From assembly GCF_056746865.1 (NCBI RefSeq), contig NZ_CM163382.1: a stretch of DNA of 64,000 bases; one strand, given 5' to 3'. The notes under the pieces were generated by a model. It was not told where the DNA came from and ran no database searches. It saw only the letters and a program-made list of their open reading frames with translations. A program made the translations under genes and the position numbers. Positions 54,238 to 54,932 of this stretch are shown in pieces. The first letter of the stretch is position 1, and the number at the start of each line of letters is the position of its first letter.

Positions 54238-54445
54238 GTTCACTGCCGTACAGGCAGCTTAGAAATCGACGGGGTGCGGTAAAACCTTTGCGAACGCGTT
54301 CACTGCCGTACAGGCAGCTTAGAAAGCTGTATTCGGCAAATGAAGTGGATGTTGATGGTTCACTGCCGTACAGGCTGCTTAGAAATTCGTACTTAACGAA
54401 CTGTTGCTCCTCTGCTGGTTCACTGTCGAACAGGCAGATAAAATG
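54238..54445 (+). CRISPR. Orphan type I-F CRISPR array: three 28-bp repeats, a degenerate terminal repeat and three 32-bp spacers; no cas genes in the window
   Basis: Repeats GTTCACTGCCGTACAGGCAGCTTAGAAA at 54238-54265, 54298-54325 and 54358-54385 (third has one mismatch); degenerate copy at 54418-54445; spacers at 54266-54297, 54326-54357 and 54386-54417; AT-rich leader upstream. Confidence 0.9.
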
Positions 54446-54844
54446 CGAAAAAAGCTCGTACTTTCGTACGCGCTTTTCTTTAAATATGACGGTGAGGGGG
54501 GGATTGACTCGCTTCGCTCGCCCTGCGGGCAGCCCACTCACTGTGTTCGTGGTCTGTCCAACTGGCTGCGCCAGTTGTCGAACCCCGGTCGGGGCTTCTC
54601 ATCCCCCCTGGAGTGCAATATGCGAAAAAAAAGCTCGCACTTTCGTACGAGCTCTTCTTTGAATATGGCGGTGAGGGGGGGATTGACTCGCTTCGCTCGC
54701 CCTGCGGGCAGCCCACTCACTGTGTTCGTGGTCTGTCCAACTGGCTGCGCCAGTTGTCGAACCCCGGTCGGGGCTTCTCATCCCCCTTGGAGTGCAATAT
54801 GCGAAAAAAAAGCTCGCACTTTCGTACGAGCTCTTCTTTGAATA
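54444..54844. repeat. Tandem direct repeats of about 178 bp (units start near 54444, 54621 and 54800), each holding the serW terminator hairpin and a copy of the serW 3' end (TGGCGGTGAGGGGGGGATT)
   Basis: Two near-identical full units, the first more diverged; the final unit runs into the real serW gene. Confidence 0.85.
54803..54832 (-). terminator. Rho-independent terminator of serW
   Basis: Minus-strand hairpin AGCTCGTACGAAAGTGCGAGCT followed by TTTTTTTT. Confidence 0.7.
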
Positions 54845-54932
54845 TGGCGGTGAGGGGGGGATTCGAACCCCCGATACGTTGCCGTATACACACTTTCCAG
54901 GCGTGCTCCTTCAGCCACTCGGACACCTCACC
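54845..54932 (-). tRNA. serW: tRNA-Ser (anticodon GGA), 88 nt
   Basis: Minus-strand GGTGAGGTGTCCGAGTGGCTGAAGGAGCACGCCTGGAAAGTGTGTATACGGCAACGTATCGGGGGTTCGAATCCCCCCCTCACCGCCA, class II tRNA with long variable arm and encoded CCA. Confidence 0.9.

Follow-up and report, generated by a model that had tools for sequence, protein, structure and literature searches.

The stretch of DNA analysed here, referred to as the window, comprises 64,000 nucleotides of an Escherichia coli chromosome (NCBI RefSeq assembly GCF_056746865.1, contig NZ_CM163382.1), and the region of interest lies between the end of clpA (at about 54025) and infA. Downstream of the clpA terminator (54048-54081), a leader precedes a short type I-F CRISPR array on the plus strand (54238-54445), which corresponds to the orphan CRISPR4.1-2 array of cas-F-negative E. 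coli. The array consists of repeats at 54238-54265, 54298-54325 and 54358-54385 and a degenerate repeat at 54418-54445 (50.1, 50.1, 40 and 24 bits with the Rfam model CRISPR-DR4), separated by three spacers of 32 nt, all of which correspond to cas3f or cas1f sequence of strain ZJ3920 at one mismatch each. On the other side of the region, serW encodes tRNA-Ser(GGA) on the minus strand (54845-54932; detected by ARAGORN, and by the Rfam tRNA model with 53.8 bits). A promoter-like site, defined by consensus match only (TTGACC, 17 nt, TATAGT), is located upstream of serW on the same strand (54976-55004). The consensus scan of positions 53900-55300 returned two promoter-like sites, both upstream of serW, and none inside the repeat units described below.

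Between the CRISPR array and serW lies a tandem repeat: Tandem Repeats Finder reports a period of 179 with 2.3 copies and 97% matches at 54448-54863, and a repeat search resolves two full 179-nt copies (54448-54626 and 54627-54805, 97% identical) as well as a 58-nt segment that is present three times (54448-54505, 54627-54684 and 54806-54863). In this segment, the terminator hairpin of serW precedes the final 19 nt of the gene (TGGCGGTGAGGGGGGGATT). By direct reading of the sequence, the part shared with serW is exactly 19 nt long (54845-54863 in the gene itself) and includes the 14-bp core TGGCGGTGAGGGGG at 54845-54858. The copy of this end at 54666-54684 is intact, and the one at 54487-54505 carries a single change (TGACGG...). 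Past the 19 nt, the first two copies read GACTCGC... and continue into a body of about 115 bp (GACTCGCTTCGC...), while the third reads CGAACCC... and continues into the tRNA (CGAACCCCC...). The observation of tandem units of about 178 bp beside the CRISPR array, with three copies of the serW end plus terminator of which the last alone extends into a tRNA, is confirmed, as is the direct run of the degenerate CRISPR repeat into the first unit, which it abuts. Two details of the original prediction need correction: in the phase chosen there, the tRNA-end copy directly follows the terminator and stands at the start of a unit rather than at its end, and the body is about 115 instead of 135 bp long. 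Despite the immediate neighbourhood, the 179-bp units do not contain a CRISPR repeat and are not members of the CRISPR4.1-2 array.

The array is best described by an alternation of terminator hairpins, which are not assigned to either strand, and elements on the minus strand. At the CRISPR-side end of the array, terminator hairpin copy 1 (54450-54481, about -16 kcal/mol) is the most diverged of the three. It is followed by element 1 (54487-54623, 137 nt), whose last 19 nt on the minus strand (54487-54505) copy the serW 3' end with GTCA replacing GCCA. Hairpin copy 2 (54625-54660) consists of an A-tract, a 16-bp stem, a GAAA loop and U8, with -22.5 kcal/mol on the minus strand. Element 2 (54666-54800, 135 nt) ends with 19 nt (54666-54684) that are identical to the serW 3' end, including the 14-bp core used in island attachment. 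Hairpin copy 3 (54804-54839) is the working serW terminator, which on the plus strand faces transcripts from clpA and the CRISPR array. The GTCA end of unit 1 together with its weaker hairpin (-16 vs. -22.5 kcal/mol) suggests that the array is decaying at this edge. In the direction of the tRNA, a unit comprises the serW trailer with its intrinsic terminator, a G+C-rich body of about 115 nt that is predicted to fold into a conserved multi-hairpin structure, and the 19-nt copy of the tRNA end, which corresponds to the end of the T-loop, the 3' strand of the T-stem, the 3' strand of the acceptor stem and GCCA.

To which family these units belong is indicated by a scan of the region against all Rfam families. 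Both elements match the RtT family (RF00391) on the minus strand over model positions 1-130: element 1 with 43.6 bits (E = 8e-7) and element 2 with 41.6 bits (E = 2.5e-6). These scores are just under the RF00391 gathering score of 45 bits, with full-length alignment to the model. The orthologous unit of E. coli O145:H28, which is 98% identical, scores 46.3 bits and is labelled “RtT sRNA” by PGAP, and two units behind serX, the second and identical tRNA-Ser(GGA) gene of E. coli K-12, also reach 46.3 bits. The same PGAP label is found at the serW locus of many other strains. In strain Yu5, whose serW locus is 100% identical to the window except for one extra repeat-spacer unit of 60 bp, the units are left uncalled; the annotation has a “hypothetical protein” of 152 amino acids there, which extends over the CRISPR array plus the first unit. 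Moreover, the layout is that of the family: the period is 179, the units lie on the minus strand like serW, the first unit begins after a trailer of 44 nt, and the 3' ends match serW at 19 of 19 nt (unit 2) and 18 of 19 nt (unit 1). Family assignment therefore rests on covariance model, position, strand, period and 3' end, and the serW repeat is very probably, as the best overall explanation, a two-unit tandem array of a Ser-type variant of RtT. Further sub-threshold Rfam matches over the terminator and the tRNA (sX4, MicC, Thr_leader and others) were set aside as chance.

The reference for this family is the tyrT/tyrV locus of E. coli K-12, which carries four RtT copies of 133-137 bits, one between the tRNA genes and three in tandem past tyrV, 178 bp apart. 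This repeat corresponds to the one described as 178 bp x 3.14 by Egan and Landy (1978), and its transcript to the rtT RNA that Bösl and Kersten (1991) reported. Two later papers (PMC4986893, PMC2965389) cite the 1991 study for the rtT RNA. The K-12 copies end with ...AATCCTTCCCCCACCACCA, which is the 3' end of tRNA-Tyr. The annotated gene rttR (b4425) starts 7 nt past the tyrV CCA, and its end coincides exactly with both the first repeat's CCA and the end of the Rfam match; these coordinates fit processing at CCA ends. Like the tyrT-tyrV repeat, the window array consists of tandem units of about 178-179 bp directly downstream of a tRNA gene and on its strand, with each unit ending in the last 19 nt of its tRNA. 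Both share the motifs GRTGAGAA, CGAC, GGTTCGA and CCCGNAGGGCGA, and in both an outer stem is formed by a G-rich 5' segment and the T-stem 3' strand. In contrast to the tyrT-tyrV repeat, the cognate tRNA in the window is Ser(GGA), and the matched segments are GGGGG/CCCCC instead of GAAGG/CCTTC. The middle hairpins of Ser-type elements differ as well, which accounts for scores of 42-46 bits compared to about 135 bits for the Tyr type. Strong terminator hairpins are located behind 38 of 48 Ser-type units, but behind none of 61 Tyr-type units.

The tyrT copy of K-12 has a tpr open reading frame, the “protamine-like protein”, which begins with its conserved ATG, and a coding role of this kind was considered. 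However, the frame starting at the conserved RTG is not kept across relatives: in 39 of 61 Tyr-type elements it stops after 5 codons, and in Ser-type elements it spans 14-78 codons where a stop falls within the examined sequence, with no stop reached in 14 of 51. A tpr-like protein was rejected on these grounds, and the element is therefore regarded as non-coding; open reading frames over the window repeat derive from the repeat itself.

Similar units are widespread in E. coli. At serX of K-12, a repeat of 181 bp x 3.4 contains three RtT matches, labelled “RtT sRNA” by PGAP, which are 92-95% identical to the window units and combine an identical tRNA gene, the same terminator and the same unit anatomy. 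The two loci differ in their neighbours (ycdU-ghrA for serX vs. clpA-infA for serW) and in a short linker before the G-run (CACACACCGGGGGG in serX vs. CACTCCAGGGGGG in serW units). Among 5,426 complete E. coli genomes, 3,768 contain the Ser-type body, which occupies a median of two and a maximum of twelve places. At serW, the copy number is zero in K-12, one in O145:H28 and SCU-113, and two in the window, Yu5 and 118UI. In K-12, nothing separates the degenerate CRISPR repeat from the serW terminator, and the junction sequence equals that of the window; this CRISPR-terminator junction is identical in the zero-, one- and two-unit states. At least one unit at serW is carried by roughly 380-510 of the 5,426 genomes, an approximate figure since the junction queries used for counting cross-match the 93%-identical serX units. 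Counting by length is blurred, too, because three CRISPR spacers (180 bp) are about as long as one unit (179 bp). The serW units form a cluster of their own (97-98% alike, compared to 92-95% to serX units). A recent origin of the serW units as copies of the serX array was rejected, given this separate cluster and the presence of Citrobacter units at the orthologous locus.

The copy number at serW most likely changes (0, 1, 2) by unequal recombination between the segments that contain terminator plus tRNA end. Units would be gained and lost by unequal homologous recombination, or by replication slippage, between these segments of about 58-65 bp. Such a process is consistent with the near-identity of units within an array (97-99%) and would explain the drift of the outermost unit. 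The suggestion that recombination had occurred between the repeats is thereby retained as the likely cause of copy-number change, but not as the event that removed a cas cassette.

Beyond E. coli, one genome per species was scanned with the motif common to Tyr- and Ser-type elements, GRTGAGAANCNNCGACNNNGGTTCGA. The scan yielded at least 120 loci with at least 184 elements, and among the matches listed, the loci fall into about 30 genera of Enterobacterales plus Pseudoalteromonas. The nearest upstream tRNA gene on the same strand is Tyr(GTA) for at least 82 elements, Ser(GGA) for at least 74, and Ser(GCT) for at least 8; the remaining elements among the matches listed are at contig ends or have no assignable tRNA. 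The first element typically lies about 60-70 nt past the tRNA, with further copies in steps of about 175-183 nt, and Tyr-type elements reside beside narI and Ser-type elements beside ghrA (the serX locus) at about 30 loci each, again among the matches listed. At least four Ser-type loci in Citrobacter adjoin clpA and/or infA, i.e., the serW locus, and a type I-F CRISPR repeat is absent from all four. This argues that the serW units are older than, or independent of, the CRISPR-Cas insertion in Escherichia. The body of the element is conserved from Pectobacterium to Escherichia, with a related form in Pseudoalteromonas. Little on the serX and serW repeats or on RtT was found in the literature searched. 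The serW units are of a known kind that is ordinary for Enterobacterales, has its own Rfam family, and is routinely annotated at this locus in other strains.

The structure of the Ser type was assessed in an alignment of 51 distinct elements headed by the two window units. RNAalifold alone recovered a partial fold, in which helix A was missed and an alternative local hairpin was called, so the structure was set by hand and then tested. In the tested fold, the G-run at the 5' end pairs with the C-run at the 3' end, which represents the 3' strand of the T-stem in the tRNA copy, to form an outer stem. Further parts are a small hairpin whose loop is CGACC, two hairpins that are variable, and a short one with flanking tandem G-A. 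Across the 51 elements, standard pairs account for 91.3% of cells in the proposed fold, compared to 34-54% when the partners are slid by 1-3 columns; double-sided changes occur at 17 pairs, compared to 5-8 with slid partners, and none of 500 shuffles reaches the observed values. Since the fold was partly derived from the same, related sequences, these statistics are supportive rather than a formal proof, and they support a conserved secondary structure of the Ser type that appears to be maintained by compensatory changes. Several U-G pairs, which would be C-A on the opposite strand, favour the tRNA strand as the one that folds. The Rfam family has a structure of its own, in which CaCoFold reports a tandem G-A motif.

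Within this structure, and in all lineages examined, four segments match or complement the T-stem of the tRNA next to them: the G-rich run at the 5' end, an internal C-run, an internal G-run before UUCGA, and the 3' end. Where the T-stem 3' strand is CCCCC, the 5' run is GGGGGG, the internal C-run NCCCC and the internal G-run (taken before TTCGA) CGGGG; with CCTTC, the respective segments are GGGAAGG, GCTTC and (T/C)AAGG, and with CCCTC they are GGGAGG or GG(A/C/T)GG, CCCTC and CAGGG. Where the acceptor stem of the tRNA varies between lineages, the 3' end of the element varies with it. The four segments permit two alternative nested foldings, which covariation does not separate since the columns concerned barely vary; the same applies to the long-range helix of the Rfam model vs. 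a local CCC/GGG hairpin. Folding prediction for the read-through transcript gives an alternative pairing, between the first unit's G-run and the T-stem 3' strand of the tRNA itself. The tracking is compatible with concerted evolution of element and tRNA gene as well as with selection for pairing, alone or in combination. A description of such four-segment tracking was not found in the more recent literature searched. A rather doubtful extension is that RtT elements, far from being passive spacers, imitate the 3' half of the tRNA and evolve together with the tRNA they follow. If so, they might play a role in the folding or processing of the tRNA precursor, or act as decoys for factors that read the T-arm or CCA, such as processing nucleases, RelA with the ribosome, or tRNA-targeting toxins.

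The same resemblance to the tRNA also raises the question whether the units are just decaying partial duplicates of a tRNA gene, without a function of their own, that are kept alike by gene conversion or unequal crossing-over. This would account for the four copied T-stem segments, for 3' ends identical to the tRNA down to lineage-specific variants, for the near-identity of units within one array, and for the degeneration of unit 1 at the edge. However, neither ARAGORN, which reports serW only, nor the Rfam tRNA model (E up to 1) detects a tRNA in the units, and a tRNA pseudogene was rejected for this reason. Moreover, helices A, B and C, which have no counterpart in tRNA, stay paired through many double substitutions across genera, which is not expected from pure decay, and the conservation of the body between Pectobacterium and Escherichia, with its relative in Pseudoalteromonas, is equally difficult to reconcile with it. 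Accordingly, we consider this explanation improbable.

If the serW repeat is a Ser-type RtT array, its expression can be envisaged by analogy to the rtT RNA of tyrT: RNA polymerase passing the serW terminator would produce a precursor, which the tRNA 3'-end processing machinery might cut after each CCA, releasing structured RNAs of about 135-175 nt with a tRNA-like 3' end. A small structured, transcribed RNA, as had been considered a fallback for the unit body, matches the nature of the family. However, the terminators that follow Ser-type but not Tyr-type units weaken the analogy with tyrT, and strong terminators combined with the lack of an internal promoter-like site mean that an RNA release of the tyrT kind is not assured. 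With no promoter-like site of their own, the units would depend on read-through from the serW promoter (55004-54976), and as they are bracketed by terminators, their expression is probably low. For the tyrT rtT RNA, a modulating effect on the stringent response is the sole functional claim in the literature searched. One study (PMC4986893) reports Northern blots of matches to the RtT family in Actinobacillus as well as matches linked to Asn and Lys tRNAs in Pasteurellaceae.

The original prediction had offered a different reading, in which the duplicated serW ends are scars of repeated integration and excision at the tRNA gene, or remnants of a recombination event that deleted the I-F cas cassette. 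Its premise is sound: serW and serX are proven integration sites and genuine hot spots for islands, and a perfect repeat of 14 bp, TGGCGGTGAGGGGG, which constitutes the last 14 bp of the tRNA, borders OI-43, OI-48 and SRL-PAI on both sides (PMC3064760). This core is common to the island att repeats and to each unit, and some genomes do carry an island at serW, where the match to the window ends at about 54858-54871. Like the units, the att duplicates of OI-43, OI-48/SpLE1 and SRL-PAI place a second tRNA 3' end downstream of the tRNA gene. However, island att repeats are 14-17 nt long, are free of trailer, terminator and RtT body, and flank tens of kb including a P4-type integrase gene, whereas the repeated part of the units adds the whole trailer and terminator to the 19 nt (58-65 bp) and encloses only 115 bp of conserved structured sequence. 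In NCCP15648 and O111:H8, the serX side consists of the RtT unit(s), the terminator and ...ATATGGCGGTGAGGGGG, immediately followed by island DNA with a tyrosine recombinase gene at the junction. The island of NCCP15648 spans about 87 kb with iha, microcin and tellurite-resistance genes, and at its far end these 14 bp recur and lead into an intact serX. A search for unit bodies at the island borders placed the RtT unit outside the island, in the flanking chromosome, with the 14-bp core as the actual boundary.

Two side observations concern these islands. With its 14-bp core, each Ser-type unit would offer a spare copy of the attB used by integrases of P4-type islands. Also, the serX units of island-bearing strains are retained although they are now 87 kb away from the tRNA promoter, which fits either a recent integration or a role for which co-transcription is dispensable.

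The loss of a cas cassette fares no better. In strain ZJ3920, which has the I-F cas genes, the locus reads clpA, CRISPR4.1, cas1f to cas6f, terminator, serW, CRISPR4.2 and infA; a second serW 3' end was not found within 28 kb at up to two mismatches, and there is no unit at serW. With a single serW end, the I-F cassette is not flanked by these repeats, and cas6f directly adjoins serW in 239 genomes. In addition, the same units recur in conserved positions at serX, at tyrT/tyrV and, among the matches listed, in about 30 genera, with similar arrays behind serX of K-12 and at the clpA-serW locus of Citrobacter, where the CRISPR is missing. The alignment with cas-positive and island-bearing strains proposed as a check thus identifies the units as att sites of neither. 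It had also been anticipated that, if the proposal were wrong, the units would have no counterpart at the borders of islands or cassettes and would be identical in all E. coli: the former is what was found, but not the latter, as the copy number varies. Integration scars are essentially refuted by these comparisons and retain only a very small probability.

An equally slim chance is given to the idea that the array acts mainly at the level of DNA or transcription. It would then be a stack of bidirectional terminators that insulates two convergent transcription units, clpA/CRISPR and serW, and the body would be a passenger. Each Ser-type unit does bring a full strong hairpin (-16 to -22.5 kcal/mol, flanked by an A-tract and, opposite to it, a U-tract; 38 of 48 units from various genera), and the array lies between convergent genes. 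However, Tyr-type units show the same body and tandem habit with terminators in 0 of 61, a single terminator is enough in K-12 and in cas-positive strains, and the conserved structure of the body is left unexplained.

Taken as a Ser-type RtT array, what appeared to be the footprint of an island or of a lost cas cassette turns out to be an ordinary member of an old, tRNA-linked repeat family. The main value for the window is a correction: the element belongs to a known family, and the array is therefore no evidence for the traffic of mobile elements at serW or for a route by which the I-F system was lost. For annotation, it matters that both copies in the window fall just under the Rfam cut-off. 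On a larger scale, the RtT family is conserved behind tRNA-Tyr and tRNA-Ser genes across Enterobacterales, and the tracking of the T-stem as well as the terminator in Ser-type units provide concrete starting points for its study.

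The three spacers of the orphan array, a type I-F CRISPR4.1-2 array that adjoins the RtT units (tRNA-linked structured-RNA repeats) at serW, all match I-F cas genes of the cas-positive E. coli strain ZJ3920: spacers 1 (window 54266-54297) and 3 (54386-54417) each differ by one mismatch from its cas3f, and spacer 2 (54326-54357) differs by one mismatch from its cas1f. The latter gene is also matched by the single spacer of K-12, with two mismatches. Orphan CRISPR4 arrays with anti-cas spacers of this kind have been described before. In ZJ3920 itself, the serW gene (L002 23197-23284) carries a compensated change in the T-stem, CGGGG/CCCCG instead of GGGGG/CCCCC, and the stretch between serW and infA is likewise distinct, with a second leader and a CRISPR4.2 array. 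Because ZJ3920 differs both in the serW T-stem and in the serW-infA sequence, the entire clpA-infA interval is represented by two distinct haplotypes.

In strain Yu5, the RtT units are not annotated, and a gene call made by PGAP, the 152-aa “hypothetical protein” WP_077698801.1 (L001 1644-2102, minus strand; approximately window 54143-54541), extends across the CRISPR leader and repeats as well as the first RtT unit. This call is most likely spurious, because the corresponding ORF of the window, of 132 aa, is made up of repeat sequence. As for the read-through transcript, the minimum-energy fold of window 54620-54870 (minus strand) is predicted to pair the G-run of the first unit with the 3' strand of the serW T-stem, and this pairing would enclose the terminator hairpin (z = -7.2 vs. 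shuffles). Each G-run can find its pairing partner in the C-run on either flank.

At serX, the second tRNA-Ser(GGA) gene, NCCP15648 (L131, L132) carries an island of ~87 kb (record positions 1252885-1339505) between the serX-linked RtT unit and serX, with a cargo of a P4-type integrase, iha, microcin H47 genes, a ter cluster and toxin-antitoxin genes. The hairpin beside the restored tRNA end is supplied by the island, and the RtT unit consequently now lies 87 kb away from any tRNA promoter. A search of E. coli genomes returned ~30 places on plasmids with ~94% identity to the serW tRNA region, annotated as “tRNA-OTHER” (e.g., NZ_AP027855.1 29534-29635), which may be tRNA-Ser-like genes or plasmid-borne att fragments.

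Outside Enterobacterales, RtT-like elements lie behind tRNA-Ser(GCT) in Pseudoalteromonas (L011, L045, L107, L113). The 5' half (GGTGAGAACCCTCGACCAGGGTTCGAC) is common to these elements; in most of them the 3' half is different and does not finish with the tRNA 3' end, while the element at L107 does. Several Ser-type arrays of Enterobacter, Pluralibacter and Kosakonia (L035, L044, L111, L029, L041) have a shortened last unit, which ends directly 3' of the C-run (…GAGTCAATCCCCCCC|GGTGC…). These units are without acceptor strand and CCA, so that the distal end of the arrays shows a recurrent truncation point.
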